In this document: piece by piece, positions 4,028 through 55,919 of the stretch
How the letters are laid out: each line of letters begins with the position of its first letter
Position numbering within the stretch: position 1 is the first letter of the stretch
Virus record (IMG/VR): IMGVR_UViG_3300013121_000018
Coordinates: 1-64,000 of that record
Source: a virus
Taxonomy: Duplodnaviria > Caudoviricetes
DNA length: 64,000 nucleotides
Direction: 5' to 3' (one strand)
Translations under genes and position numbers: made by a program
The notes under the pieces: model-generated
The model's input: only the letters and a program-made list of their open reading frames with translations
What the model was told of the DNA's origin: nothing
Database searches by the model: none

Positions 4028-6118
4028 TTATTGACTACTTCTTAAATATGTTAATGTTCCCATCTTGCCCACAATGTCACCTGAGCCACCGCCGCCGCCA
4101 CCAGCCTGGGCTGTTAGCTTTATGATGTTGGTATTAGTGAAAGTTAGACCCGTGATGTCGGTTTCTTGGGTGTAGCCAGTGGTCGCATTTGAATTCGTAG
4201 TCAGTGTAGCGTATGCACGAGCAGTTGTTGCGCCAGTTCTAATTACAATCACCCTGACTGAGCCATAACCAGTATTTGATATGGTTATGGCACCACTGTC
4301 AAAAAAATTTGTACCACCGAAGTAAGCCCTGATTGTGGCTGTGCTTGTATTATCAGTGAATTGCAAGTTAAAATCCCCAATAATTTTTTCACCAGTGGCC
4401 GATAGCCTGTTTGCGACAGATGTATGGCTGAATATATCAGTTTCAACAGTAGTTCCATTTGAAACATCAGAAACAAAATCAGCTAGAACCAATACCGTTG
4501 GCCGTTCTATGGGCCTATTGTACGCAAACCTGTTTCCAACAATTACTTCATCTGCATATATAGTGGTTGCGTTTATATTCCCAGCCACAAGTGATTCAGA
4601 ATAGTGCCTCTTGGTTGAGATTGAAACAAGTTTTGTGGCATCATAATCAGTGTAAAATATATGGCCATTGCCTGCGGCCATTGCATATCCGGTTGTTCCG
4701 GTAATTGTCTTAACATAAGTAGGAGACGCTGGATTCGTTACGTCAATAACAACAATACTGTTTGTGCCGTACCCGGACACATACAATATTTTATCCAAAA
4801 GAACCATTGTTATTTCCCCACCTCCAGTAAATTGAGTAAACTGGGTAGAACTTATCTGCGTCAATGTACCCGGATTGCTTGCATTGTAAATATTCAGATA
4901 TTTTGAACTTCCTTCACCGGTTAAATAAAGGTATTTACCATCGCAGACCATCGCCCTTGGATTCGTAAGACTTCCCGTACTAATTGTATCAAGGAACGTC
5001 ATTGATAATGGATTGCTTATATCAATACTGGCCACACGGTTAGCATCTACAAGACTAATATAAGCAATGTCGCCAAACACGCAGACCTTGCTTCCTTGAG
5101 ATGTAGCTCCTATGTTGGTGACACTAGAAAGGATTGCTCCGTTATCAAGGCTCCATGCCCTAAAAGCATTTGTGGCTCCCGTTGCATACAACACCCTACC
5201 CCTTATAAATCCTCCCAATGTTGGTTGATTTCCAGAAGTGGCTATTTTCCGAGCAAACACAGGAGATGTTTTATTTTTTATACTGTAAATGGCTACTGCC
5301 CCCGCACTACCACCAGAATCATTGATGACATACAGGGAATCTCCTTCCGCATACACATTGAATGGACGAAGTATGTTTGTTGCATCTGTTGTTGTGGAAA
5401 CCAGCGTTGGGGATGCTGGATTGGAAATATCAAACACGCCAATCCTTTTTGATGAAAAGTTCATCACGTAGGCATAATTTCCAAGTATGCACATAGATTC
5501 TGGTGTTCCAAGGTTTGTTGCACTTGTTACAGAACCCTTTTCTTCAATATCAGTGAGATTATAGTTGCCCCAACCAGTATATCGTTCGTTTCCATATATA
5601 TCTAAAATAAATGTTGAATCGTTCCTCACATAAGTTGTATCTATGTCTGATACATTTATTGCATTTAATAAACTATCAATAAGATAACACATGTATTCAT
5701 TGACCATTTGATTATCATTACCAGATGTATTAGCTGCCCAAGGTGGTAATTTAAAGTTTGTGGAACCTCTGGAAATAATTGCAGGGGTTGTTGGAATAGC
5801 TCCAATAGAAGTAATTCCAGTATTATTAAGTCTTAGAGTAGCAGTGTTACCAACAGCACTTACTATCACAGTGATTGGTAAGGCTAAAGATGTACCACCA
5901 TCATTGAAATAAACAATATCATCTACTTGAAGTTCAGTACAATCCGTTCCTCTAGGACTACTATAATTTGTTACTGATACTTGCCAGTAACCTGCTCCAG
6001 AACCTGTTTGAGCAATATTACACTTACCTGTAACAATACCTGTAAATTCAACAGGGTCAGTTTGTGCAAATATTGACAAAGGTAAAAGAAACAGTAATAT
6101 ATTAATTAGTTTTTTCAT
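4028..6118 (-). CDS. signal-peptide-bearing fibre-like protein with LVIVD-type beta-propeller repeats
   Basis: MKKLINILLFLLPLSIFA|Q; repeats such as GNYAYV...IGVFDISNPASPTLV, IDISNPLS, VIDVTNPASPTYV; shared N-terminal domain. Confidence 0.7.
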   Translation of the reverse strand: MKKLINILLFLLPLSIFAQTDPVEFTGIVTGKCNIAQTGSGAGYWQVSVTNYSSPRGTDCTELQVDDIVYFNDGGTSLALPITVIVSAVGNTATLRLNNTGITSIGAIPTTPAIISRGSTNFKLPPWAANTSGNDNQMVNEYMCYLIDSLLNAINVSDIDTTYVRNDSTFILDIYGNERYTGWGNYNLTDIEEKGSVTSATNLGTPESMCILGNYAYVMNFSSKRIGVFDISNPASPTLVSTTTDATNILRPFNVYAEGDSLYVINDSGGSAGAVAIYSIKNKTSPVFARKIATSGNQPTLGGFIRGRVLYATGATNAFRAWSLDNGAILSSVTNIGATSQGSKVCVFGDIAYISLVDANRVASIDISNPLSMTFLDTISTGSLTNPRAMVCDGKYLYLTGEGSSKYLNIYNASNPGTLTQISSTQFTQFTGGGEITMVLLDKILYVSGYGTNSIVVIDVTNPASPTYVKTITGTTGYAMAAGNGHIFYTDYDATKLVSISTKRHYSESLVAGNINATTIYADEVIVGNRFAYNRPIERPTVLVLADFVSDVSNGTTVETDIFSHTSVANRLSATGEKIIGDFNLQFTDNTSTATIRAYFGGTNFFDSGAITISNTGYGSVRVIVIRTGATTARAYATLTTNSNATTGYTQETDITGLTFTNTNIIKLTAQAGGGGGGSGDIVGKMGTLTYLRSSQ

Positions 6119-25842: not shown

Positions 25843-26120
25843 TACGGCTGTTTACCAGTCAATACCCCAGTGATAAGACCTTCAATAGCATTTGCTATAG
25901 GAGAATCACCAAGTTCAATTTTCAATTGTTTTCCAGAGCAATCTTGTAGAGTTTTTACAAGAGATGAATATCCAAGGCGGACAAGCTGGAGATAATCATT
26001 TACATCAGTGATTACAAGATCACCATCTGTTTCAGATGCAAATAGAGCATCTAATTGTTTTACAGCATCAGACGAATTATCCAAATAACACGTCACTGTA
26101 GCTAATTGTTTATTCTTCAT
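25842..26120 (-). CDS. hypothetical protein
   Basis: ORF track. Confidence 0.5.
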   Translation of the reverse strand: MKNKQLATVTCYLDNSSDAVKQLDALFASETDGDLVITDVNDYLQLVRLGYSSLVKTLQDCSGKQLKIELGDSPIANAIEGLITGVLTGKQP

Positions 26121-26274
26121 TAAGAGAATTGGTTAAAAGTGTAATTATTTTATTTTTGAGTACAGCAAGTTCATCTTGTGACCAGAGTGATTGTGGTGCA
26201 CCATTTGGTGCCGATACTGTAATTGAAATAAGATGACGCAGTTGTTCAAGCGCGATTAAAGTTTGTTGATCCAT
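26110..26274 (-). CDS. small hypothetical protein (54 aa)
   Basis: MDQQTLIALEQLRHLISITVS...; fills the gap between flanking genes; below the ORF-track cutoff. Confidence 0.5.
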   Translation of the reverse strand: MDQQTLIALEQLRHLISITVSAPNGAPQSLWSQDELAVLKNKIITLLTNSLNEE

Positions 26275-26275
26275 T

Positions 26276-26878
26276 TTATAATGAAAGTTTAATTAAGTGA
26301 TTAGGTATCAAGAAATACCCGTAATGTTCGTTTTCAGGGTCTGTAGGATACTCTGAGAGTTCTAGTGCTACATCAGGATGTACAAATGCATTTACTCTGA
26401 TATAAGCATTATCTCCAGAACCAACAGCAACTACAGGCTTAAAAGTATTGTCAATCATGACAACATCGCCGACATTAATATCATCTGCAACTTTATTGGT
26501 TGCTACAATAACTGCTTTGTTTATAAAGGGATAAGGATTATCTACGCTATAAAGTTTGCCACGACCAGCATTGGTTGGTACTTCAATTGATAATGAAGTG
26601 GGAATAAGAACATCTCCTTCTTTAATCATAGGACGTACAAAGCATCTTACCAAGACATCAAATCTCGGTTTGAGTTGTGCATACTTCGGATTTACTTGCA
26701 AAATACTTTCGTTGTATTTCGTCAATTTTTCCTGGAAACTGTTGTCGAAGTGAAAGCTCTCTGTTATGTTGTTCTGCTCCTGTGAAGGTTCTGTCTTGGA
26801 TTGCTTCTCTTGTCCGTTGGTAGGCGAGTTCCACAAGTCTTTCATGCTCATTTTTGAACCCGGTTTGTCTTTTGCCAT
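26276..26878 (-). CDS. GroES-like co-chaperonin
   Basis: LKPRFDVLVR...EGDVLIP...KAVIVA...INVGDVVMI pattern of the cpn10 fold, with extensions. Confidence 0.55.
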   Translation of the reverse strand: MAKDKPGSKMSMKDLWNSPTNGQEKQSKTEPSQEQNNITESFHFDNSFQEKLTKYNESILQVNPKYAQLKPRFDVLVRCFVRPMIKEGDVLIPTSLSIEVPTNAGRGKLYSVDNPYPFINKAVIVATNKVADDINVGDVVMIDNTFKPVVAVGSGDNAYIRVNAFVHPDVALELSEYPTDPENEHYGYFLIPNHLIKLSL

Positions 26879-27152
26879 TTTCTTTTAATAGTTTGTAAAG
26901 TTCACCACAAATCACTACAAGACGTTTTGGCAGTGTCTTGTATGATAAGAGGTATCTAAGTTTAGGAATACTAATTCTTACTTGAAAGAACGGAGTTAAA
27001 TCTATATGTCCTTTTGCTGCATATGGTCTTACCGTATAATGTCTGAATCCATCTAGGAAGAAAGAGTTTACAACTTTTCTTACAAGTGCTTCAGGTAATC
27101 CAGTTTTAACAGCAGTTCTTTCAATAAGATTATCTTGTCTTAAGTCTGTCAC
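26658..27152 (-). CDS. HU/IHF-like DNA-binding protein
   Basis: LIERTAVKTGLPEALVRKVVNSFF helix pair followed by IDLTPFFQVRI strands. Confidence 0.5.
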   Translation of the reverse strand: MTDLRQDNLIERTAVKTGLPEALVRKVVNSFFLDGFRHYTVRPYAAKGHIDLTPFFQVRISIPKLRYLLSYKTLPKRLVVICGELYKLLKENGKRQTGFKNEHERLVELAYQRTREAIQDRTFTGAEQHNRELSLRQQFPGKIDEIQRKYFASKSEVCTTQTEI

Positions 27153-27355
27153 GATAAAACAATTTTATCTGTGAGTATTGTATGTTTTAATTCTGCTCCA
27201 TAAATTGTATCCATATCTTCTGAGTATAACTCAAACAATAATCTACGATACAGTTGTTCAGGAAGCACAATTCTTTTTACTGGTTTGCGTTTTCTAAGTT
27301 GAAATTTAAGAATCAAAAATATCAAGTTGTCTAAGGCTTCTGTTCTTTTTCTCAT
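27149..27355 (-). CDS. hypothetical protein
   Basis: ORF track; overlapping start/stop with neighbours. Confidence 0.45.
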   Translation of the reverse strand: MRKRTEALDNLIFLILKFQLRKRKPVKRIVLPEQLYRRLLFELYSEDMDTIYGAELKHTILTDKIVLS

Positions 27356-27732
27356 GGTATATTAAATGGAAATGTAAATTGTATTACATCAATTTTCTTT
27401 TCTTTGATTAGGGTTTTCATGTTTGCAATACCTTTATGTAAACTGTATTTACCCCTTTCATTTTTAATTAAAAGCCCTGCTTCAATAAGTCGTTTTCGCA
27501 TCATGTGGACATATTGAGGTTTATAGTTAAATTCTTTTCCAAGGTCTTTGTCTAGACCTTCAAACATAATCGTTTTAATATAAAACTCTATGTCAGCATT
27601 TGTAATCTCAACTCCTTTTAACTTCAGTACATTTAAATAAAACTCCCAAAACTTTTCTTCTGGATAGTTTATTGGTTCTTCAGGTGAATGAAGAACATGT
27701 TCCTTAAAAGGATTAATTATTAGTCTTTTCAT
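27352..27732 (-). CDS. winged-HTH DNA-binding protein
   Basis: LGKEFNYKPQYVHMMRKRLIEAGLLIKNERGKYSL. Confidence 0.55.
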   Translation of the reverse strand: MKRLIINPFKEHVLHSPEEPINYPEEKFWEFYLNVLKLKGVEITNADIEFYIKTIMFEGLDKDLGKEFNYKPQYVHMMRKRLIEAGLLIKNERGKYSLHKGIANMKTLIKEKKIDVIQFTFPFNIP

Positions 27733-27772
27733 TATCGCATATTAATCTAGTTTTGTTTTAATTTCTTTTTAG

Positions 27773-27794
27773 TTGCGGATATTGGAATCGAACC
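27773..27794 (-). pseudogene. 3' remnant of split tRNA (T-loop plus acceptor strand), tRNA-Met(i)-like
   Basis: GG-TTCGATT-CCAAT-ATCCGCA-A; acceptor strand pairs with 28376-28370. Confidence 0.75.
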
Positions 27795-27797
27795 GCC

Positions 27798-28337
27798 TTA
27801 TTTTTTTCTTTGAGAGGTATAAACACAATTACGGCTACAGTACATCTTTCCGGTAACACCTCTTTTCATCTGCATAGTGTAAACAGATTTCCTTATACTA
27901 AATATATCTTTACAGTATCCGCATTCTAATTGAATTAGAGGTTTTGAGTTTTTTCCTTTGTTTGATTCGGATAACTTTTTTCTAGTTTCTTCCGAAACTT
28001 CACGTTTAAAAGAACCTCTACCGCCCCCAGTTAAATTATAACCATTAATATTAGTTTCAAATTTTTGAATATAATATGTTTCTAAACAATCCAATTCTTT
28101 TTTTGTTATACTTATATCGTCAGATAATTCAATTACAGCAAGAATTTGTAAATTAAAGTTCTCTATTCCTTTATATTTAGATATTGCTTGTGAAAAATAT
28201 CTTCCTATAGAATCTTTATTTTTTAGATATTTCTTGTATCTCTCTTTAAAATTTATTGTTTGACCTATATAAGATTTGTTTATTGGAGAAGTAAACATGT
28301 ATATAACTCCTTTTCCTTCTATATTTTCTAAATTCAT
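27798..28337 (-). mobile_element. GIY-YIG homing endonuclease with NUMOD3 and C-terminal Zn finger, inserted in a tRNA gene
   Basis: GVIYMF...SYIGQT...ERY, ETYYI, GYNLTGGG, SEETRKKLSESNKG, CGYC...YCSRNC. Confidence 0.9.
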
Positions 28338-28353
28338 TAAATTTTAATTAATT

Positions 28354-28376
28354 AGTAACCACTACTCTAACCCGCA
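28354..28376 (-). pseudogene. 5' remnant of split tRNA (acceptor strand plus D arm), tRNA-Met(i)-like
   Basis: TGCGGGT-TA-GAGT-AGTGGTT-ACT. Confidence 0.75.
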
Positions 28377-28387
28377 TTATTATGTTG

Positions 28388-28458
28388 CACGGATAGAAGG
28401 ATTTGAACCCTCAAATCACAGTTTTGGAGACTGCTTACCACACCAAATGGGTATCCGT
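28388..28458 (-). tRNA. trnW: tRNA-Trp(CCA)
   Basis: Acceptor ACGGATA/TATCCGT, anticodon arm GCAGT-CTCCAAA-ACTGT, T arm GAGGG-TTCAAAT-CCTTC; atypical short D region. Confidence 0.85.
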
Positions 28459-28519
28459 ATAATGACGGGCATATGTAGTTTCTCTCATAGTACCCGTCTA
28501 ATAAACATATGAAAATAAA

Positions 28520-28895
28520 CTTTAAGGAATTACCCTGAAGTTTAGTTCCTCCTGTTCACCTGGTAACTGTTGACCTCTAGACACAGGTATGGTTCCGGTA
28601 ACAGGTATCTGCTCCGTAAACCTAATCACTGATTTTGGTGAATATGTTCTTATAAGAGTCTTTGACCTTTGGGACGGTTATTCTCATTAATCCCATGCCT
28701 TTCGGTTTAGACGATTAATGTTTTATGTCTAGGATGCAATCTTTTTAGCACTTGGCCGCATCACCCTCCTGTCAAATCTTTCAAATCATATTTCGTAAGA
28801 AGTCCTTATAACCAGAAGTTTCCTTCTCATACTCTGGGCCTACGAAAGTCATAATTCTTATAAATGATGTTCTTATTTGCCTTTGCATTTAAAAA
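28520..28895 (-). ncRNA. putative structured non-coding RNA
   Basis: ORF-free, GC-richer than flanks, several nested stems and GNRA tetraloops, directly downstream of a consensus promoter. Confidence 0.5.
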
Positions 28896-28901
28896 CGAGT
28901 A

Positions 28902-28933
28902 CAAAGATAAGGGAAAAAACTTATTTATCCAAA
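28902..28933 (-). promoter_or_regulatory. Bacteroidota sigma70-type promoter
   Basis: TTTG (28933-28930) - 20 nt - TATCTTTG (28909-28902). Confidence 0.8.
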
Positions 28934-29015
28934 TTTATTACAATATTTTTTTGATAAAAATTGAAGAAAAGGTCATAACTACATCATAAACCTAAAAAAT
29001 TTGATTGGAAAATAT

Positions 29016-29702
29016 CTACTTTTTTCTAAATCTATGCCGCAAAGTATCTTCTTTTATATTCAAAATTGCAGCGGCTTCTTTAAAAGAACTATATTCAACT
29101 TCATCGATAACAATACTTCTTGCTTTTGGCCCAGTTTTTTTAAATTTTTCTGGACAATCTTCTGTAAATGTAAATAAATATCCGCCTACACTTTTTCTTT
29201 TTGTTTTGGAATTTGGAGCAAGAGAATCGTATACTGATTTCTTCCTTATGTTTAATTTATTACAAGCCTCTGAAATTGAAACAAATTTACCTACAAAACT
29301 AAAATCAGATTTTTTCCAAACAAAAAGTTCTTTTTTATTTTTTGTATTTTGTTGATTTAATTTTTTAGATTCTTCAGATGTAACAAATTTTGTTAAATCT
29401 TGATTTGGTTCTTGTTGATTATATCCTTTTTTAGCAGAATCAAATTTATTAATATAGTATAATTCTCTTTCAGTCAACTCTTGTCTTGTAATGTATTCTA
29501 AAGAAGACCATGCTTCTATAACATTAAACATAAAACAATCTTTTCCATATTTATTATAGGCCGCCTGAAGATGTCTGTTGGGATGTTTATTGTTTTTTAA
29601 ATCTTTAAAGTGTCTTGATTTTCTTTCTCTTAACGATATACTTTGACCAATATAATTTTTGTTATTTTTTGTGTTTGTGATTTTGTAAATTCCAATATTC
29701 AT
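29016..29702 (-). mobile_element. free-standing GIY-YIG homing endonuclease
   Basis: GIYKITN...YIGQS...RH, RELYYI, GYN; C-terminal NUMOD1-like HTH. Confidence 0.9.
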
Positions 29703-29721
29703 ACGTTATTAATTTAGAATA

Positions 29722-29753
29722 CAAATATACGATATAAATCTTATTTTGCCAAA
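29722..29753 (-). promoter_or_regulatory. Bacteroidota sigma70-type promoter for the GIY-YIG gene
   Basis: TTTG (29753-29750) - 20 nt - TATATTTG (29729-29722). Confidence 0.75.
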
Positions 29754-29934
29754 CATTTTAGCATTAATTTTTCCTATATTAATCGGGTTTAAATTGTATA
29801 TGTGTCAGTTACCTCGAAACAACCCCCCTCACAAATTTTGGAGCGGGAATACCCCCGTCTGTTTTCACAGACGAATTCCGATTTTCAATCGGAAATTCCG
29901 TCAACTTTTCTGTCATCATTTCAATTCTAATATC

Positions 29935-30261
29935 ATGTCACAATTCAATCTTACCTTCAAGACTAGCGTCAACAAACTTCCTGAAGACTTTGCTGAAATT
30001 CACAGCCTTAAGAGCGTATGCTCTGCTCTTGGTGTACACTCTGTCAAGCTTGCCGACAAAGGCAATGGTAAATTCCTCATTCTGATTGCTGATGACGGTT
30101 TATACACCACCATTCCAGCATCCAAGGAAATGCAGCCACACCATCTGTCCACAGCAAGGGTTGCTCTGATGAAGAAACCCAATGAGGACGGCACTCCTGC
30201 ATATGTGGCAATCCGCCCAGAAGGTGAAAGCTCTGTTGTCCTTGGAGGCTGCACATTCTAA
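29935..30261 (+). CDS. first plus-strand (early) hypothetical protein
   Basis: More plausible ATG at 29935 (MSQFNLTFK); followed by a terminator-like hairpin. Confidence 0.6.
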   Translation: MSQFNLTFKTSVNKLPEDFAEIHSLKSVCSALGVHSVKLADKGNGKFLILIADDGLYTTIPASKEMQPHHLSTARVALMKKPNEDGTPAYVAIRPEGESSVVLGGCTF

Positions 30262-30267
30262 ACCACA

Positions 30268-30305
30268 GTGGGGGCTTCGGCCCTTACTTTGTTTCTTTTC
30301 TTTTT
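30268..30305 (+). terminator. intrinsic terminator-like hairpin
   Basis: GGGC-TTCG-GCCC core followed by a T-rich run. Confidence 0.6.
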
Positions 30306-30497
30306 ATTATTATGATTAATTCACCATTAAATATTTTGATTATGAAAAACACAGTTTATTATGAGTATCCTGATGGAACAATTTCATCACAGGACAATGG
30401 ATGGGACAGGCAATAACAAACTATCAGGTGGTACACATTAGTATATATGTATCACCTGTTCTTTTCTTTTAATTTAAACCTTTTAAAATAGAATATC

Positions 30498-30806
30498 ATG
30501 AATAATTTATTGCAAGTTGTATTGGAAAACAACCCTGAATTGTTGATACATGCAGCAAAGATTGACAACAACATGATTTTTGATGAAACAGGAAAAACGA
30601 TTGTTGTCCAGGTGGATAATGATAAAATCCCTGTTGGTTTCAAGAAGGCTAAAGAAAATGAAGGCAACCGTTACAACTTCTACAAAGAAGTTCGTGTTAT
30701 TGCTACAAACATTTTCAAGATGTCAAAGCCTTACCTTACCGAATATGGTTGGAAGGATGCTACTGATGCAGCACCAACTGAATTGGTTCCTATTACATTA
30801 CTATAA
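30498..30806 (+). CDS. hypothetical protein (paralogue A1)
   Basis: Similar to 31491..31787. Confidence 0.65.
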   Translation: MNNLLQVVLENNPELLIHAAKIDNNMIFDETGKTIVVQVDNDKIPVGFKKAKENEGNRYNFYKEVRVIATNIFKMSKPYLTEYGWKDATDAAPTELVPITLL

Positions 30807-30997
30807 TTAATTAATAATCAGCCTGTTATACTATGGTTGCAGTGGTTATAATCCACAATAACAGGTTGATTTTTGATTATTATGTAACCAAATGGTTACG
30901 TTTTAACAACCCAAAACAACATCACCTCTTATTTCAAACAACCAAAAATGCCCAAAACCAGGGCATAACTATATCATCATTTCAAAATCATTTTATT

Positions 30998-31153
30998 ATG
31001 GAGAAGAAAAAATTTAATACAACCATGGAAATGGCTAATTGGATTAATTCTAATATTCCAGATTTCCTTGAACAGGAAATATTAATGTTACAAGGAATCA
31101 ACAATAAAAAATTATTCGGAATGTATGTGATTTCTTTTAGTAAACTGGAATAA
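30998..31153 (+). CDS. small hypothetical protein
   Basis: ATG at 30998 (MEKKKFNTT). Confidence 0.4.
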   Translation: MEKKKFNTTMEMANWINSNIPDFLEQEILMLQGINNKKLFGMYVISFSKLE

Positions 31154-31272
31154 TTAAAAACACAGAAACCTGTTTGTATTACTGGTCTTGTATCAAAAAC
31201 AAGTACATCAAAGGATACAACAGGTTTCTTTTTTACTAAAATATATTATTCAACATTATTAAACATTATATC

Positions 31273-31473
31273 ATGAAAAAATTTCTTATCCATTTCATCA
31301 TTTGTTTCTTACCATATTTTGCAGTAGCAACTGTATGGTGTCTTTCCATTGGAAACTTTTCATACACAGCAACAGTAACTGCTGATGGCTTTTACTTCGC
31401 TTGTGCTGTATATTGGATTATATTCCAATGGTTTCTACATTGTGTTGTACAAGAAGCATATTTTTACAATTAA
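31273..31473 (+). CDS. small two-TM membrane protein
   Basis: Two hydrophobic segments. Confidence 0.55.
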   Translation: MKKFLIHFIICFLPYFAVATVWCLSIGNFSYTATVTADGFYFACAVYWIIFQWFLHCVVQEAYFYN

Positions 31474-31490
31474 TCACAAAATTCAATATT

Positions 31491-31787
31491 ATGGAAAATG
31501 TTCTTTTGAAAGTTGTTCTGGAAAATAATCCAGAATTGTTCATTCATGCTACAAGAGTAGAAAACGGTCTTGTTTCTGATAAAACTGGACAAACAATTGT
31601 TGTCCAAGTTTCTACTGAAAAAATACCAAAAGGTTTTAAACTGAAAAGTGGTCGACATGGTTGGTACTATGTTGAAACCAAAGTATTGGCAACCAATGTT
31701 TATTCAACAAGTAAACCATATTTTACAGAATATGGATGGAAGGCAGACTCTGAAATGCCGCCATCAGAACTTGAAGCTGAAGAATAA
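31491..31787 (+). CDS. hypothetical protein (paralogue A2)
   Basis: MENVLLKVVLENNPELFIHA...SKPYFTEYGWK. Confidence 0.65.
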   Translation: MENVLLKVVLENNPELFIHATRVENGLVSDKTGQTIVVQVSTEKIPKGFKLKSGRHGWYYVETKVLATNVYSTSKPYFTEYGWKADSEMPPSELEAEE

Positions 31788-32056
31788 TCCAGTACATCAA
31801 ATAATTAAATAATTTAGAAATCTGTTTGTATTTAGACGTAAGGTTGAATATCGTCTTTAACATAAAGAGTTGTTCAGTTGAAAATACTGATAGACTTTGA
31901 TACAACATGTGGTCAAACTACAGATGGTACAACAGATTTCTTTTTTAATTTAAAATGGAAGATAAAAATAATCTTGGACAAACATTAATGGTAATTGGAT
32001 GGTCACTTATTATAATATCGTTCATATTATCTAAGTGTACAACTCTTTAACTTGTT

Positions 32057-32142
32057 GCTCCGGTGGTGGAATTGGTATACACGACAGACTTAAAATCTGT
32101 TATCCATTATTTGGATTGAGGGTTCGAGTCCCTCTCGGAGTA
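32057..32142 (+). tRNA. trnL: tRNA-Leu(UAA)
   Basis: GCTCCGG/TCGGAGT acceptor, ACAGA-CTTAAAA-TCTGT anticodon arm, long variable arm, GAGGG-TTCGAGT-CCCTC. Confidence 0.92.
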
Positions 32143-32174
32143 CAAAAATAATACTTATTATTGTATTAAAGATT

Positions 32175-32612
32175 ATGATTAAAGCAACCATAACGCTGAC
32201 CTTAACAGGAGGCGTGAGGCTTCTACGTGAAGCCAAGAGCTTGAGTAATCAAGACATTCAAAACGCATTGCAAAATGCAAACAATGATCCTGCTTTTGGT
32301 AAAGTTTTTGCACATTTACCAAGCACACAAAAGAATCATGATGTTACTATTGAAGAAATTCCTTGCACACAACGTATCAACATCATGAATGTACAGTTCA
32401 AAGAAATAATGTCAGGTCAAGCAAGACCTTCTGACAGTTTCTGCCTGAACAACAAATTGATGATCATCAAGAAAAAAGATGGTCGTCGTGTCAAGGAGTT
32501 TATGTATGAAAAATGGCGGTCATTCTCGGAAGAAAAGCGTTTGGCATTGTTTTTCAATGAGGTTGCCCTTGATCGAAATGCAGAACTTGGAAATATTGAA
32601 ATTCTCAAGTAA
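32175..32612 (+). CDS. hypothetical protein
   Basis: ORF track. Confidence 0.55.
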   Translation: MIKATITLTLTGGVRLLREAKSLSNQDIQNALQNANNDPAFGKVFAHLPSTQKNHDVTIEEIPCTQRINIMNVQFKEIMSGQARPSDSFCLNNKLMIIKKKDGRRVKEFMYEKWRSFSEEKRLALFFNEVALDRNAELGNIEILK

Positions 32613-32615
32613 ATA

Positions 32616-33023
32616 ATGAAAACACGTTCTCTTATTTTAATTAATTCTATTAAATTAAATATTATTATGGCACAATTTTTAAAAAGAACTGAAAAAAATG
32701 GATCGCTTACTGATAACTTTACTGCAGTATTCAGGAAACCACCTGCTATTGGTGGATTGATTGACTGTAAAATTCTCAAAAAGAATCGTGAAGAAATTCT
32801 TCACAAACATTTTTCCTTAATGCTCGATATGCCTGAATCAAAGGCATTAGAAAACGCCAAGAAGACGTATGTCAGGCTGGTGAAGAACTCAAAAGCAATT
32901 GTCAAACGTCTACGTGTATTGTCCTATGAATGGGACACAGCCAACGAGAAATACATTGCCGTATTAACAGAAAATACATTACCATATTATCGAAAGAAAA
33001 ATGTGGAAATTAATGTACAATAA
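32616..33023 (+). CDS. basic hypothetical protein
   Basis: ORF track; the real start may be the internal MAQFL. Confidence 0.5.
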   Translation: MKTRSLILINSIKLNIIMAQFLKRTEKNGSLTDNFTAVFRKPPAIGGLIDCKILKKNREEILHKHFSLMLDMPESKALENAKKTYVRLVKNSKAIVKRLRVLSYEWDTANEKYIAVLTENTLPYYRKKNVEINVQ

Positions 33024-33279
33024 TCAACTGTTAGAGAGGGGACAATCCATTCCTGTCGTTATTGACAACCTTAAAGTCAATATGCAGTACGGATTGTCTG
33101 CTCTCACAGTTGATGTAAACAAAATTGAAAATTTTAATAAGTATAGGTTAGGTAAAATAGAAGTTGTTTATCATAAGAACAAACAGAATACTGGTGCTGC
33201 GGCAAAGGTTCGTGTTCTATGTATAAATAATTGCTTTTTAGTGGTTACAGAATATAAGAAACCTATAATTTTAAAATAG
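33001..33279 (+). CDS. hypothetical protein
   Basis: ORF track. Confidence 0.45.
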   Translation: MWKLMYNNQLLERGQSIPVVIDNLKVNMQYGLSALTVDVNKIENFNKYRLGKIEVVYHKNKQNTGAAAKVRVLCINNCFLVVTEYKKPIILK

Positions 33280-33317
33280 TTTTACTTTTTTTTAAAAATT
33301 AAAAAACAATTAAAAAA

Positions 33318-33872
33318 ATGATTACTAAGAATTCAACCAATCAGGAAATTCGTGATGCATTTAAAGATGTTGTAGCAACAGGTAAGGCATTTGTTTATGG
33401 TCTTTTTGAAACAGCTAACGCTGATTATATTCAACTTGGCATTGCACAAGAAGTTACCACTCCAGGTTCTGCCACTGCAGAACAACAACTGTTCTTAGGA
33501 TGGGGTGAGAATAAAAGTATTGTGCGTTGTTTGCAAAACGTTAAGAAAGAAGTTCTTGAGAACATCAAGAAATATTTCAACAGCGATTTGAATCCAGGTT
33601 CTATTCTGGATAAAGCAAATATTCAAATCACTGAAGCATTTACTCCAAACTCTTGGCCTGATGCTGATGGTACAATTGTGTATCAAAAAGCAAAAGTGTA
33701 TCCAGAATCTTCACAACATGCTGGTAAATTCATGGTAGACTCTGAAGGTCGCCGTGTATACCGCAATACATCTCTTGTTTTGGGTGAAGCAACACATACT
33801 TTTGTGAAAGATTGTGTGCCTGAAGCAGCACCAGCAAATGCAGTTTCTCTTGAAAGTCTTGCAACAGCTTAA
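33318..33872 (+). CDS. hypothetical protein (highly expressed codon bias)
   Basis: ORF track; A-rich leader. Confidence 0.6.
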   Translation: MITKNSTNQEIRDAFKDVVATGKAFVYGLFETANADYIQLGIAQEVTTPGSATAEQQLFLGWGENKSIVRCLQNVKKEVLENIKKYFNSDLNPGSILDKANIQITEAFTPNSWPDADGTIVYQKAKVYPESSQHAGKFMVDSEGRRVYRNTSLVLGEATHTFVKDCVPEAAPANAVSLESLATA

Positions 33873-33933
33873 GTAAACAACACCTCTCTCTAATTAAATT
33901 TTTTAACAAATCATTTTAAAAATCTATTTTTTT

Positions 33934-34326
33934 ATGAGCAAATTAACTTCTAAAGCAGTATTTCTTCTTTCAGCTCTTTTTTTGGCAACTGGTGACAACG
34001 CACCAGAATCAGATTTCTGTGTTCCCTCAAACGAGGGCGATTGGGAATCTGCTTACAAAGAACTTCAAGAAAATCGCATTCTTGATGAAAATAACAATCT
34101 TACCGGTTATGGTAAGGCTAGGGCACATGGGTGTCAATCGCAAGGCGTTAATTTGCAACGACTTGCTGAAAAGAATCCAAACATGGCTATTGCTATGTTA
34201 AGGGAATCTGTCAACGGTATTGAATATCATTACCAAAATGGTGTTGAATTCTCCGATAAGGCTTTTAAGCTTTTTGGTGAAACTTCAGCTAGACTTGGCC
34301 ATTTGGCTGCAACTACAGTATCGTAA
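33934..34326 (+). CDS. hypothetical protein
   Basis: ORF track; followed by hairpin 34336-34368. Confidence 0.55.
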   Translation: MSKLTSKAVFLLSALFLATGDNAPESDFCVPSNEGDWESAYKELQENRILDENNNLTGYGKARAHGCQSQGVNLQRLAEKNPNMAIAMLRESVNGIEYHYQNGVEFSDKAFKLFGETSARLGHLAATTVS

Positions 34327-34380
34327 TACAAAAACAAATCCTCTAGTCCCGTAAGATTAGAGGATTTTAATATTTTTTTT

Positions 34381-34929
34381 ATGGACAAAGAGAAAAGAGA
34401 AGCCTATGTCCAATGGCTTACAAAGAAAGGAAAACCACAATTAGTTACTCCTTTAAAGTTTATTGGACTTAGAAAAAATAAACACGATCACGTCGTAACA
34501 TTTTACGATGCTGACGGGAGACCCTACAACGGGGAAGTATGGGATTGTCGTACACAGGATGGTAAAGTAAAACAATTTACTTTTCCTGTTGAGACAGCCT
34601 CTCAGGAAGAAGTAGGATGGAGTTTTAATTCTAATCCTATTGATGATAATAGTATTTACACTAATCAAGATGCTTGGCATTATGATGGTGAAAACTATAT
34701 TGTAATCCCTAATGAATGTAAATTAACAGAAAAAGAAGAAAAAGTAATGAGTTTTCTTCATAACTTTGTTAACAACACAGATGATGACGTTATGGGCACA
34801 TTGGCTCAATTAAAGTTAATGATGTTGACTACGCCGTCACAAAGGATATTAAAAGAGTACAAAGATTTTAGAACCAATCATGCCGAAAAGCATGATAAAC
34901 TAAACAATCTTATAGATGGAAGTATTTAA
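34381..34929 (+). CDS. hypothetical protein
   Basis: ORF track. Confidence 0.55.
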   Translation: MDKEKREAYVQWLTKKGKPQLVTPLKFIGLRKNKHDHVVTFYDADGRPYNGEVWDCRTQDGKVKQFTFPVETASQEEVGWSFNSNPIDDNSIYTNQDAWHYDGENYIVIPNECKLTEKEEKVMSFLHNFVNNTDDDVMGTLAQLKLMMLTTPSQRILKEYKDFRTNHAEKHDKLNNLIDGSI

Positions 34930-35110
34930 AAAGATTGGATTTTTTCTCCTTGCTGCAATTAGCGCATTTATATTGGCTTCAATAGCAATTGCTGCTAAAG
35001 CACTTGGAGGAATTGTTGGATTTATTTTTTCACACTTTGTTGATGGCTTCAAAGGACAAGCTGATGCCGTCAATGAATATTTTGAGTATTTAGACAGGAA
35101 AACCGATTAG
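34916..35110 (+). CDS. small membrane protein
   Basis: Long hydrophobic stretch. Confidence 0.5.
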   Translation: MEVFKKIGFFLLAAISAFILASIAIAAKALGGIVGFIFSHFVDGFKGQADAVNEYFEYLDRKTD

Positions 35111-35117
35111 AGGTTTT

Positions 35118-35134
35118 GGCCCCGTAGCTCAGTG
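35118..35134 (+). pseudogene. 5' remnant of split tRNA (probably Arg)
   Basis: GGCCCCG-TA-GCTC-AGTG; pairs with CGGGGTC at 35684-35690. Confidence 0.8.
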
Positions 35135-35491
35135 TACTATTATGTGACGTATTCTATGACAGTTTGCACATAATAGTACACATTTATCCAATTCTTCTAA
35201 TATTTTATTCCAATTCATAATTCTTAATTTCGACCAATCATGATCTTTTAATTTAGGATTAAGATGATGAAATTCAAAAACAGCATAGTGCGAATTGTTT
35301 AATTCTAATAAACAATCATTACATTTACCACCTTTGTAAATAATAGCATCAATTTTACGTTTTATCCAACGTTGTTGACACCGTTTATTAAAACAGTTTT
35401 TACAGTAGCACATTGTATTTTGACTATGTGATTTTGAAGTATAAAACTCATTTAAAGGTTTAATAATTTTACAATCGGTACATATTTTCAT
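35129..35491 (-). mobile_element. HNH homing endonuclease
   Basis: CTDC...CKNC, GGKCNDC, FEFHHLNP, KCVLLCANCHRIRH. Confidence 0.9.
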
Positions 35492-35524
35492 ATTATTTTA
35501 TTTTTTTTATTATTTGTAAATCAA

Positions 35525-35597
35525 GGCTTGGTCATTCTAACGGATAAGAAATCTGGCTTCTAACCAGAGAATAGGGGTTCGATTCCTCTCCAAGTCA
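35525..35597 (+). tRNA. trnR: tRNA-Arg(UCU)
   Basis: GGCTTGG/CCAAGTC acceptor, TCTGG-CTTCTAA-CCAGA, AGGGG-TTCGATT-CCTCT. Confidence 0.92.
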
Positions 35598-35605
35598 CAA
35601 AGATA
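35598..35605 (-). promoter_or_regulatory. -7 promoter element (TATCTTTG) pointing through tRNA-Arg into the HNH gene
   Basis: Exact TAnnTTTG match; no clear -33 TTTG. Confidence 0.5.
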
Positions 35606-35675
35606 ATATATAATATGCTTAGTAAATAAGTTTCTAAGCATATTATTAAATATTTAATAAATATTTAACAAAAAA

Positions 35676-35691
35676 ACTCCTGTCGGGGTCA
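35676..35691 (+). pseudogene. 3' remnant of split tRNA
   Basis: ACT-CCTGT-CGGGGTC-A followed by CAA. Confidence 0.8.
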
Positions 35692-35705
35692 CAAATTAAG
35701 TTTTT

Positions 35706-35924
35706 ATGAATGTATTTAAAAAATCAGAAGTTCCTAAAGGAAAAAATTCTTTATATTCTGAAACTTATCAGGTTAACTTTTGGTTGACTGAAAATGGAAT
35801 AATTTCTAAACAACAAGAAATTTATCATACTGCTTCAAAAGGTAGACACAAGCAAGTTGAAGCTAAATGGAAAAAAGAATATAAAGATAAAGCAGTAAAA
35901 TTGATTTCTGTAATTTATGAATAA
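35706..35924 (+). CDS. hypothetical protein
   Basis: ORF track. Confidence 0.5.
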   Translation: MNVFKKSEVPKGKNSLYSETYQVNFWLTENGIISKQQEIYHTASKGRHKQVEAKWKKEYKDKAVKLISVIYE

Positions 35925-35930
35925 AATATT

Positions 35931-36170
35931 ATGGCAAAAGATAAAGAATTTGAGAAACGATACAAAGAAGAAGGAAACAGAAGAATGTCCATTAGAAAAG
36001 CAAAAAGAAATGAAAAATATTTTAAACTTACAAGAGAAGCCCAAGAATGTGGAAAACCTATTTGGGCAATAAAAGCAGGATATTGGCCTGATTCTAATAG
36101 TCCTACAGGATATTCACAAAAATGTGATTGGCAGGGTAATTGTCAATATCCCTGTAACGGAGATTGTTAA
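35931..36170 (+). CDS. Cys-containing hypothetical protein
   Basis: C-terminal CDWQGNCQYPCNGDC. Confidence 0.5.
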   Translation: MAKDKEFEKRYKEEGNRRMSIRKAKRNEKYFKLTREAQECGKPIWAIKAGYWPDSNSPTGYSQKCDWQGNCQYPCNGDC

Positions 36171-36175
36171 TACAT

Positions 36176-36231
36176 CGCAGGATAGCTTAGTGGTAGAGCT
36201 TTTAGCGGGTGTTCGATTCACTCTCCTGCAA
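36176..36231 (+). ncRNA. tRNA-like element lacking the anticodon arm (initiator-like)
   Basis: CGCAGGA/TCCTGCA acceptor with C1:A72 mismatch, D arm GCTT-AGTGGTA-GAGC, T arm GGGTG-TTCGATT-CACTC; only 7 nt between the D and T arms. Confidence 0.75.
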
Positions 36232-36249
36232 CAAATTAAAATTAAAATC

Positions 36250-36444
36250 ATGGAACTATTATCATTTGTAATTTGGTTATGTTTTTATCCTGTTTCTTGT
36301 GCAGTAGAAAAATATGTATTGGCAGAATTTTACAGAAAAAGAAACTGGAAATTTTTGTCCGAAACAAATAACTTTTTTTCTATAGTTTTTAATTTGTTTT
36401 TATATATTTTAATAGCACAATTTCTTTTCTTCAGGATTCCATAA
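36250..36444 (+). CDS. small membrane protein
   Basis: ATG at 36250 (MELLSFVIW); two hydrophobic segments. Confidence 0.5.
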   Translation: MELLSFVIWLCFYPVSCAVEKYVLAEFYRKRNWKFLSETNNFFSIVFNLFLYILIAQFLFFRIP

Positions 36445-36483
36445 CAGACTAAGAACAAACACCTAAACTTAAATCTTAAACTT

Positions 36484-36789
36484 ATGAAAAAATTATTATT
36501 ACTAGCATTTATTAGTTTGAGTGTTTGTTCTTATGCTCAAACCATTGGTCTTGAAATGGGAGCAAATCTTATTTCAGACAGAAAATTATTTCATGACAAT
36601 ACTCTTAACTGCCAACCACGGCCATTCACCTATGTTGGAGTGAATTATCAAATCAAAAGTATAACGACAAGACTGACTTATACTTTTGATTTACACATTA
36701 TTACTATTGGGTCTAGTATCCAATTATATAATGTGAATAGAAAAAGTAGAAGTTATGCTTTAATAAACAGAAACTATAACAAACATTAA
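36484..36789 (+). CDS. secreted beta-rich protein
   Basis: Signal peptide ending CSYA|Q; amphipathic strands. Confidence 0.55.
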   Translation: MKKLLLLAFISLSVCSYAQTIGLEMGANLISDRKLFHDNTLNCQPRPFTYVGVNYQIKSITTRLTYTFDLHIITIGSSIQLYNVNRKSRSYALINRNYNKH

Positions 36790-36810
36790 ACTATTAAAAT
36801 TAAAAAAATT

Positions 36811-37446
36811 ATGAGAAAATTGTTAATGTTTGTAACTTTTCTTACATTTAGCGTTATAATGACTGCACAATGTAAGATTGAAACTGGAAATCTGATTGTC
36901 GAATCATTAGGTAATCAAGAGTATAGCCTATATTTAAGCCAGAAACCAATTAACACCTGTTTCCCGGTTTCTGACAGCAGTTCATTATGGGTGGGTATAC
37001 TTTGTTCATCTACTGGTAATTATGCGTCAGAATGGCTGAAATGGTCTGATACGCTAAAATACACTTTTAGTGGTCATATTACACTGGTCGCTAAGATTAA
37101 GTGGTATAAGCAAGGGAATGCTTATGCTGAAACACATATCTTTGTACCAGATGTATTTGAAACTGGACATAACTGCTATACTAAAATTGGTACATATTCT
37201 GTTCCAAATATTATACCACCAGTAATCACACCACCTGTGTTTGTTCCAGAGTTTAATATTAACAATGAAATTATTACCACTAATGTTGGTGGCACGTTAA
37301 TAATTATGTCATATCCTAACTTTGATAATATCATTGTAAAGGAATATGACAATCAATTCACTTTTAATCTATTACCCGGATGGTGGTATTGTTATCTAAT
37401 ATTAGATGATGGGACAACATTGGGTAATACAATCATTCAAAACTAA
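36811..37446 (+). CDS. secreted protein with possible T9SS C-terminal-domain-like tail
   Basis: Signal peptide ending MTA|Q; Pro-rich linker; FNLLPGWWYCYLILDDGTTLGNTIIQN. Confidence 0.5.
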   Translation: MRKLLMFVTFLTFSVIMTAQCKIETGNLIVESLGNQEYSLYLSQKPINTCFPVSDSSSLWVGILCSSTGNYASEWLKWSDTLKYTFSGHITLVAKIKWYKQGNAYAETHIFVPDVFETGHNCYTKIGTYSVPNIIPPVITPPVFVPEFNINNEIITTNVGGTLIIMSYPNFDNIIVKEYDNQFTFNLLPGWWYCYLILDDGTTLGNTIIQN

Positions 37447-41087: not shown

Positions 41088-41789
41088 ATGAAATTTAAAG
41101 ACTTAAAAAGACACGCTCTCTTAGTAAATGGAATTTATAAAATAACTAATATTTTAAACAATAAATGTTATATTGGAAGCAGTGCTTCTAAGTATTATTT
41201 ATATAATAGATTATTAAATCATTTTAATAATCTAAGAAAAAATAAACATGTTAATTCTCATTTACAAAATGCATGGAATAAGTATGGAGAAGAGAATTTT
41301 ATTATTAGTATTTTAGAAACATGTTCTCCTGATAAATGTATTGAAAGAGAACAATATTATATTAATATTTTTTCTCCTGATTATAATATATGCCCTATTG
41401 CTAATAGTTCTTATGGAAGAACCTGCGATGAAAACACTAAAAGAAAAATATCTAATAAAAATAAAGAATGGTATGCTACTGAAGAGGGTATATTATTTAA
41501 ACAAAAATTATCGAAACTAAGAAAAAATTGTTCAAACTTAAAACACTCTGACGAATTTAAAAAAAGATTATCACTTTTATATAAAAATAGAATTGTTTCT
41601 GAAGAAACAAAAAATAAAATGAGAAAACCAAAAATATCATTAAGAAAATCTATTTTAGATTTAAATGATAATAACATCTATTCAAGTGAAGAATTATCTG
41701 AAAAATATAAAGTAAGTGTTAGTTATATAAGGTCTATTGCAAGACAAGAAAGAACTTCCTCTAAAATTAGAATAACATATGTACAATAA
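41088..41789 (+). mobile_element. free-standing GIY-YIG homing endonuclease (NUMOD3)
   Basis: GIYKITN...CYIGSS, EREQYYI, YNI, SEETKNKMR; overlaps the polB start. Confidence 0.9.
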
Positions 41790-54230: not shown

Positions 54231-55919
54231 GTAAATCTGTTAAGAATATTAACGATGCGGATTTGATTATTTTTACTGGTGGAGAAGATATTTCACCAGA
54301 ATTATATAATCAAAAAGCAAATACACATACAAGAGGTGTTAATATCAAACGTGATAGGCATGAAGTTGCTATATTCAACCTCTATAAAGATATTCCTAAA
54401 CTTGGTGTCTGTAGAGGACACCAACTAATTTCTGTGTTAGAGGGTGCTTCTTTGATTCAGCACGTTGATGGTCATCATACTAACCATAATATGAAAACGT
54501 TTGATGATCATACTATTGGAGTTACATCATGTCATCATCAAATGGTTATCTTCGACAAAGACATGGAAGAAGGTAAAGACTACTATCACTTAGGATGGTC
54601 TTCACCAGCAAAAGCTACTATGTATGTTGGAGAAAAAGGTATAGATATATATAGGGACGGTGTTAAACTTGCTAACAGATACTTTGAAGAATCCGAAATG
54701 GCTTTTTTTCCAAAATCAAATAGCTTGACTGTACAATTTCACCCTAAACATTTGGGGCTTGCATAAGTGATTGTGCATGAAACATCGCTTAAATTCGGTG
54801 AACTCCTTCAATATTTTGGAGAATACCGAGCCAAGCTATTCTTAGGTTAATAGAGAATAGAAGGTGTAACGACTACAGAGGTGAGCCTAACAATAATCCT
54901 CTGCACGAAAAAGCGATTACTTACTTTTATCAAAAACATCTTTATACTGCCACTTATATCCACCACAGGTAACATCTCTACCATTACAAACGTGTCTTAT
55001 ATTTTGTCTCCAAACATTATTTTTAATAGCAGCGTTTTGTAATGAGTAATATTCTTCAACAATATTTTCTTCAAAATCTAATTTATATACTGGTCGGCCA
55101 AGTTTTCTTTTTAAAGATTCTGGTCTATTTTTTCCTAATAAGCCTTGTCTTATTTTTTCACAAGTTTCTTTTCTTACTTTTCTTTTAAAGGTAATAGGAT
55201 GCTTCATGTTGGTGGAAATATTAAAACCTTTTTTTACTGAATTATATTTATTTATGTAATAAAGTTCTCGTTCCCATAAAAATTCATATGAGTTTTCATT
55301 AGGAATAAGTTCTAAAATATCAAATATAAAATTATTGACTCCGTATTTATTATACGCTCGTTGCAATTTTATATTATAATGCGCATTTTTTTCAAGTTTT
55401 AATAAATGGTTTTTCCATCTTTTATGAAAATTAGATTTGTTTCCTTTTGTGGAACCTATATAAGCTTTGTTATTTTTAACACAAAGTATTATATAAATAC
55501 CTGTAGATTTAATGTTTACCACAGATTCTGCAGTAGTAATGATGTTTGTATAAATTTTTACCATACTTGTTTTTTTACAAAGATAACTCTGTTTAAAAGT
55601 ACAAAATAGTTTTATGTAAAAAAATTAACAATTTTTGGTAATAACTAAGTTATAATGATAAAACAATTCTATATGAATGTAAATTCAATCATATGGAATG
55701 TAAGTAAATGATATAGTCTGAACTTACAGGATGATAAACTGTAAGAAGTATAGGATAAAGAGCCTATACGATAACATAATGGAATGGATGGACAATATGC
55801 TTGGACAAAAATATGTTAAAGAATTAGTTTTCAAGTTAGTTTCTAATAAACTTGAAGAACACATAATTCAATCAAAATTGAACATTGAATATGCACAAGA
55901 GCTCGATGCCCGTTTTTAA
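54167..55919 (+). CDS. class I glutamine amidotransferase / peptidase C26, join(54167..54745,55782..55919), 238 aa
   Basis: FTGGEDISPELY, GVCRGHQ, TSCHHQ; splicing restores QFHP|EW. Confidence 0.88.
54917..55564 (-). CDS. intron-encoded GIY-YIG endonuclease (antisense)
   Basis: TGIYII...AYIGST, RELYYI, GFNI, NUMOD1-like CGGYKWQY. Confidence 0.9.
   Translation of the reverse strand: MVKIYTNIITTAESVVNIKSTGIYIILCVKNNKAYIGSTKGNKSNFHKRWKNHLLKLEKNAHYNIKLQRAYNKYGVNNFIFDILELIPNENSYEFLWERELYYINKYNSVKKGFNISTNMKHPITFKRKVRKETCEKIRQGLLGKNRPESLKRKLGRPVYKLDFEENIVEEYYSLQNAAIKNNVWRQNIRHVCNGRDVTCGGYKWQYKDVFDKSK
55578..55654 (-). promoter_or_regulatory. -7 element (TATCTTTG) plus 20-bp box driving the intron endonuclease
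   Basis: Same box and spacing as at 15694-15770. Confidence 0.65.

Follow-up and report, generated by a model that had tools for sequence, protein, structure and literature searches.

On the minus strand of the DNA analysed here, a gene for a GIY-YIG nuclease stands between the two ends of a tRNA-Met(i)-like gene (Table 1). This stretch, which we refer to as the window, covers positions 1–64,000 of an IMG/VR virus record of 107,581 bp (IMGVR_UViG_3300013121_000018) that is estimated to be 97% complete. The 5′ piece of the tRNA gene corresponds to positions 1–24 and holds the 5′ strand of the acceptor stem, U8 and A9, the 5′ strand of the D stem, the D loop and three of the four bases of the D-stem 3′ strand. 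The 3′ piece begins with G52 and G53 and continues through the T loop (TTCGATT), the 3′ strand of the T stem (CCAAT) and the acceptor strand ATCCGCA to the discriminator A. The two acceptor strands pair at all seven positions (T-A, G-C, C-G, G-C, G-C, G.T and T-A), giving six Watson-Crick pairs and one G-U pair and thus the full 7-bp stem that an earlier note on this DNA had described. As that note had also recorded, the anticodon arm, the variable loop and the beginning of the T stem are absent. Together with the last base of the D stem, this removes approximately positions 25–51, including most of the T-stem 5′ strand, so that the D stem lacks one pair and the T stem retains two G-C pairs and one G.U pair out of five. 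The split tRNA is unable to decode.

Table 1. Features of the split tRNA locus and of the sequence upstream of it (positions in the window).
Feature	Length	Position	Strand	Sequence or evidence
Two candidate Bacteroidota −7 boxes (TAAATTTG, TATCTTTG)		28902..28937	−	pattern scan
tRNA-Trp(CCA)-like gene		28388..28458	−	Rfam RF00005, 30.9 bits, just above threshold
tRNA-Met(i)-like 5′ piece	23 nt	28354..28376	−	TGCGGGT-TA-GAGT-AGTGGTT-ACT
A/T-only leader of the nuclease gene	16 nt	28338..28353	−	sequence; MFE 0; no Rfam match
Nuclease ORF	179 aa	27798..28337	−	ATG at 28337, TAA at 27800-27798
GGC between ORF stop and 3′ piece	3 nt	27795..27797	−	sequence
tRNA 3′ piece	22 nt	27773..27794	−	GG-TTCGATT-CCAAT-ATCCGCA-A

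The ORF follows the 5′ piece by 16 nt and precedes the 3′ piece by 3 nt, and every coordinate and spacing given for it earlier proved correct. This leaves only 19 nt of non-coding sequence around the ORF (16 + 3). When positions 26000–37000 were searched against Rfam at E-values up to 10, no group I or group II intron was matched, in line with the view that the element has no room for a ribozyme of either kind. For the element itself, the same search gave neither a tmRNA nor an RNase P-like hit, and ARAGORN likewise called no tmRNA there. The split gene itself was not called by ARAGORN when the whole genome was scanned with introns of up to 800 nt or at a lowered threshold, and it did not match Rfam RF00005. 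ARAGORN found no tRNA-Met and no replacement tRNA elsewhere in the 107,581-bp genome, and no complete tRNA of the same identity is present inside or beside the insert. A 14-nt match to an intact anticodon arm at genome positions 64411–64424, considered as a hidden arm, was dismissed as a chance match inside a coding frame. An A/T hairpin spanning the start codon (ATTAA-TTAAAAT-TTAAT), considered as a pseudo-anticodon arm, had an MFE of 0 and was no better than shuffles.

The window is laid out in two divergent gene arms. Since the window encodes PHROG families for portal, large terminase and GroEL, and since the large terminase is 34% identical to that of the nearest isolate, Cellulophaga phage phi14:2, the phage is, judged by these genes, a distant, uncultured crAss-like phage whose host is probably a member of the Bacteroidota. 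No sister of it was found by blastn against INPHARED or by scanning with peptide patterns from ORF126 and from the large terminase. Three further GIY-YIG genes lie in the window, at 29016–29702 (−), 41088–41789 (+) and 54917–55564 (−). All four are GC-poor (0.22–0.27 vs 0.32 for the genome), and the genome carries a heavy load of homing endonucleases.

Read along the minus strand, the neighbourhood starts with the GIY-YIG gene at 29702–29016, which is followed by 556 nt free of ORFs, the tRNA-Trp-like gene, a spacer of 11 nt and the split tRNA. ORF126 and then structural genes lie on its 3′ side. Across the whole genome, ARAGORN reported only tRNA-Leu(taa), tRNA-Arg(tct) and the odd tRNA-Trp(cca), the last of which has a short, poorly paired and aberrant D arm and is called only at a lowered threshold. 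Because this tRNA-Trp-like gene adjoins the split gene, the nuclease element stands in a tRNA operon. The nearest candidate −7 boxes upstream of the nuclease gene are at 28937 and 28909. A pattern scan for Bacteroidota −7 boxes found none between the tRNA-Trp gene and the nuclease ORF, and there is no terminator-like site on the minus strand between 27000 and 29800. We infer from this that the nuclease is probably expressed off a tRNA/late-operon transcript.

Several other features of the window deserve mention. The ORF-free segment between the second GIY-YIG gene and the tRNA-Trp-like gene (28459–29015, −) has a GC content of 0.338, as against 0.26 in the adjoining nuclease genes, carries the candidate −7 boxes at its 5′ end and gave no match in Rfam. 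Two minus-strand ORFs of 200 and 164 aa (26276–26878 and 26658–27152) overlap by 221 nt in different frames, so that one start or one of the ORFs is probably wrong. A 120-aa ORF at 35129–35491 (−) matched no Pfam family at E-values up to 0.01. A tRNA-like sequence that has no anticodon arm, parsed by hand, is present at 36176–36231.

The assignment of the free-standing ORF to the GIY-YIG endonucleases is well supported, with PF01541 matching residues 9–101 at 38.4 bits (cut-off 22.6; 1.5e-9). A NUMOD3 match is borderline (20.2 bits vs a cut-off of 20.4), and the PHROG matches are to homing endonuclease families. The catalytic columns align to those of I-TevI (1MK0), and V11-I12-Y13, Y23-I24-G25, R33, E86 and N101 are invariant in an alignment of the clade described below. 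A C-terminal domain with four cysteines (C139, C142, C167 and C171) is conserved as well. By these features the protein looks intact. Its gene has a GC content of 0.265, compared with 0.323 for the genome.

Seven proteins with 47–64% identity form a tight group with the window nuclease, set apart from other GIY-YIG proteins by a gap in E-value (1e-37 vs 1e-17). In a quick version of the tree, the clade P0001–P0008 plus the protein of locus L007, a small set of enzymes from uncultured phages, had an SH-aLRT support of 99. The L008 protein was placed in the clade by blastp instead, at 46–47% identity. As the tree places the window's three further GIY-YIG genes elsewhere, the nuclease is not a local duplicate. 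No further members emerged from a viral scan with the C-terminal domain, a metagenome scan or a GTDB scan. The protein of L214, considered as a candidate member, is a different GIY-YIG protein.

To which tRNA do the two pieces belong? Only four unrelated IMG/VR contigs (L001–L004) contain the 5′ 21-mer exactly, and in each of them it forms the beginning of a tRNA-Met(cat) that ARAGORN calls. That exact matches occur only at such starts argues that the split layout did not arise by chance. Over its full length, the 5′ piece is identical at 23 of 23 positions to these intact tRNA-Met(CAU) genes (blastn-short). The 3′ piece agrees with the tRNA-Met of L003 at 17 of 22 positions, and has GGTTCGATTCC and six of seven acceptor bases in common with tRNA-Met genes of the L003/L004 type. 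The earlier note had named an origin of the two halves from two different tRNAs as the finding that would undo its reading; both ends instead fit the same tRNA-Met family. In L003 and L004, an ordinary elongator tRNA-Met precedes the matching gene by 4 nt. The D stem and acceptor stem of this elongator are quite unlike those of the split gene, so that a chimera with the elongator would not pair at its ends.

The matching tRNA-Met genes carry an A11:U24 pair, which is typical of initiator tRNAs. The intact relatives in L001–L004 also retain the anticodon-stem pairs G29-C41 and G30-C40; at 31:39, the position of the third pair, L001 has T·G and L003 has T·T. In the split gene A11 and U24 are both present, and the description 'initiator-like' is sound to that extent. 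It does not extend to position 1:72, which is a normal U-A pair rather than a mismatch, and the anticodon stem is missing altogether. Since both pieces resemble tRNA-Met genes of the L003/L004 type, the two ends point to one initiator-like tRNA-Met, and by this comparison they are a real remnant of such a gene.

The genomic contexts of the related nucleases follow the same theme. All four independent contexts read for the clade (the window, L007, L008 and L006) are linked to tRNA genes, compared with 12 of 160 other GIY-YIG loci fetched in the same way (~7%), in which a tRNA lies within 200 nt. The L007 nuclease is 49% identical to that of the window and has near-identical copies in L166 and L167. 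Its gene is flanked on one side by AGTGGTG-TG-GAGA-AGTTGGTA-TCTC-A-TTGGG and on the other by TAA-TCAGA-AGTCC-GTAGG-TTCGAGT-CCTAC-CACCGCA-A. Here the tRNA frame is nearly whole: the D arm is paired at four of four positions and the T arm at five of five, and the anticodon stem still has its 5′ strand. The TAA of the ORF may be U36-A37-A38 of the former anticodon loop, which would place the L007 insert within that loop. The 5′ piece at L007 is identical over 20 nt to intact initiator-type tRNA-Met genes of unrelated phages, among them that of L287, in which positions 1 and 72 are mismatched (A1xC72) and the anticodon stem is GGG/CCC. The nuclease gene of L008 runs into an intact tRNA-Met with a 1:72 mismatch, its stop codon occupying bases 8–10 of that tRNA. 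In L006, the nuclease gene lies 130 nt after a tRNA-Thr, directly after a weak tRNA-like piece cut at its 3′ side. The junctions also differ between loci: the window has lost positions 25–51, at L007 approximately positions 32–35 are replaced, and of the two tRNA ends only the 5′ one remains in L006 and neither in L008. With its closest kin in or against initiator-like tRNA-Met genes, this nuclease lineage looks like one specialised in such genes, to judge from where its members are found. Two of the 12 tRNA-linked background loci (L107 and L108; 43% identity) lie 137 nt after an initiator-type tRNA-Met. Together with L007 and L008, they speak indirectly for such genes as the targets of the nuclease.

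Two further observations concern tRNA genes of this kind and their neighbours. In L286 (5691–5790) and L289 (reverse strand, near 4820), tRNA-Met-like genes with the same 5′ 20-mer as at L007 carry an extra insert of ~20 nt between the anticodon arm and the T arm. Neither gene is called by ARAGORN, and both adjoin 91-nt 'tRNA-Met' calls. Separately, six metagenomic GIY-YIG genes (L093, L097, L099, L118, L127 and L142) lie 20–60 nt downstream of a tRNA with a CUA anticodon, an amber suppressor labelled Pyl by ARAGORN, which suggests that another nuclease lineage is tied to one particular phage tRNA.

The L007 locus allows nuclease-bearing and nuclease-free alleles to be compared directly. The earlier note had looked to related phages with an intact tRNA at the locus; no sister of the window phage was found in the searches described above, and it is at L007 that ~40 nuclease-free, tRNA-like alleles were found. 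Using the capsid gene upstream of the L007 element, we identified 46 sister loci with 90–100% identity. The nuclease is present in three of them and absent in ~40 sisters with 90–96% capsid identity. All alleles follow the capsid gene and its terminator, ~50–130 nt past the capsid stop in L168–L211, and the flanks are colinear up to the element edges (86–92% identity upstream, 72–81% downstream). The alleles are of four kinds: a tRNA-Met-like gene whose loop reads CTCATAA; a version sharing this body, in which the loops are A-rich, the stem is compensated and CAU is missing; a 54-nt form without any anticodon arm; and the nuclease-bearing form of the three loci. Examples of the tRNA-like alleles are L183:2437–2507, L173:4038–4107 and L169:4020–4073. 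ARAGORN calls none of the tRNA-like alleles at this locus, and the A and B forms have in common a bulged base in the 3′ strand of the acceptor. A homing endonuclease would be expected to leave just such a presence/absence pattern. Moreover, the alleles that have lost CAU or the whole arm imply that tRNA-like genes persist in these phages without the ability to decode.

Taken together, we favour the reading, at a probability of roughly 60%, that a homing endonuclease specialised in tRNA-Met genes has invaded a dispensable phage tRNA gene without an intron, leaving the wreckage of that gene on either side. Intronless homing of this sort is the mode of the free-standing endonucleases of T4. The enzyme would cut the intact tRNA-Met(i) genes of related phages co-infecting the same cell, and repair of the break would copy in the nuclease-bearing allele, for which the tRNA ends and the neighbouring genes would serve as homology arms. 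Since the copied allele has no positions 25–51, it would no longer be a target and would be immune to its own nuclease. Because a phage tRNA is dispensable, the cost of its loss would be bearable and a ribozyme unnecessary. The nuclease gene, having no promoter of its own, would be co-transcribed, sharing a transcript with the upstream non-coding RNA and the tRNA-Trp. The differing junctions, the damaged D and T stems and the missing ends in L006 and L008 indicate that the flanks behave like debris. The tRNA ends are thus most likely insertion wreckage, more eroded in the window than at L007, and not a maintained RNA device. The fully paired acceptor stem and the substitution-free 5′ piece fit a recent insertion, and equally selection on the frame.

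Selection of that sort would be at work if the tRNA ends framed a messenger, with RNase P and RNase Z excising the nuclease mRNA from a tRNA/late-operon transcript and giving it protected ends, or if the top half of the tRNA kept a mimic function that is independent of the anticodon. In silico folding predicts that an acceptor helix joins the ends of the 604-nt window RNA (p 0.62–1.0), and that the acceptor helix at L007 forms likewise (0.97–0.99). The frame at L007 is almost complete, and the tRNA-like genes of its sisters still fold without CAU or without the whole arm. The armless sequence at 36176–36231 of the window genome and the position of the nuclease gene in a tRNA operon, with no promoter of its own, are also in keeping with such a role. 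By established substrate rules, however, the broken T stem and reduced D stem make the window RNA a poor substrate for RNase P and RNase Z. One or both ends are missing in L006 and L008, and within the nuclease-bearing frames there is no covariation, L007, L166 and L167 being near-identical. We therefore regard a framed messenger as unlikely, though it deserves to be taken seriously: if it were true, the anticodon arm would be a safe harbour that needs no ribozyme, and a third harmless way for such genes to persist besides introns and inteins.

The evidence on the source of the pieces bears on two further accounts, both of which we consider improbable. According to one, the 5′ piece would come from the resident tRNA-Met(i) and the 3′ piece would derive from a replacement tRNA-Met, truncated to its 3′ part, that arrived on an L008-like cassette of nuclease plus tRNA. 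The arrangement in L008, where the nuclease directly precedes an intact tRNA-Met, is of this type, and homologous tRNA-Met genes would also yield acceptor strands that match. Such an origin, however, requires two extra deletions, no second 3′ piece lies downstream, and both pieces resemble the same tRNA of the L003/L004 type. According to the other, the nuclease entered an RNA that was already without an anticodon arm, so that little or nothing was deleted. When joined, the pieces come to ~50–56 nt, the size of the RNA at 36176–36231, and a 54-nt armless form exists at the L007 locus in the sisters. Yet each of the four genes that match the 5′ piece exactly is a full-length tRNA-Met gene, the RNA at 36176–36231 has a different 5′ sequence, the T stem would still be broken, and L007 retains remnants of the anticodon stem.

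The idea of an unrecognised intron that is spliced out to restore a working tRNA-Met draws on the position of the insert in the classical region of tRNA introns, and at L007 within the anticodon loop itself, but is scarcely credible, given that the window lacks the anticodon arm itself, that only 19 non-coding nucleotides flank the ORF, that no intron model matches, and that the junction sequences at L007 do not allow a CAU to be reconstructed.

Several implications follow from the reading we prefer. The accepted homes of homing endonucleases are self-splicing introns and inteins on the one hand and intergenic spaces on the other. The window nuclease, by contrast, resides within an RNA gene that has no splicing element to remove it. 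Our search of the literature, in which most subscription journals were not covered, found no account of a nuclease ORF in an intronless tRNA gene. The lineage would use a highly conserved phage tRNA sequence as a portable landing site, at the price of killing a dispensable gene. It follows that tRNA counts in crAss-like phages overlook split genes of this kind, and that labels such as 'group I intron endonuclease' on these proteins are unfounded. The L007 sisters, with filled, empty and armless alleles at one locus, provide a ready natural experiment, which could be used to map the target site and to ask what role tRNA-like RNAs without an anticodon play.

Among known systems, group I introns with homing endonuclease ORFs occur in the anticodon loops of bacterial tRNAs, for example in tRNA-fMet with I-Ssp6803I. 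As in those introns, the nuclease gene of the window is located in the anticodon region of an initiator-like tRNA gene. In contrast to them, the window element, with only 16 + 3 nt around its ORF, has no ribozyme, and no functional tRNA can be recovered. The element also resembles tmRNA, in that paired 5′ and 3′ ends form an acceptor helix around a coding stretch. It differs from tmRNA in having C-G at 3:70 in place of the alanine identity pair G3:U70, in its broken T stem, and in enclosing a full protein gene with its own start, with no tag-peptide logic. With two to three of the five T-stem pairs left, the idea of tmRNA-like processing is weaker in the window.

The closest parallel in setting is SegB of phage T4, a free-standing GIY-YIG enzyme whose gene lies in a tRNA cluster (PMC2330249). 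SegB recognises the T-loop motif GGTTCRANTCC and cuts tRNA genes of phages that lack SegB, carrying its own gene and the neighbouring tRNA genes into recipients without an intron (PMC2330249). The window nuclease is likewise a GIY-YIG protein encoded in a phage tRNA cluster, a likeness of family and setting. Unlike segB, which lies between genes, the ORF of the window is placed inside a tRNA gene and destroys the tRNA.
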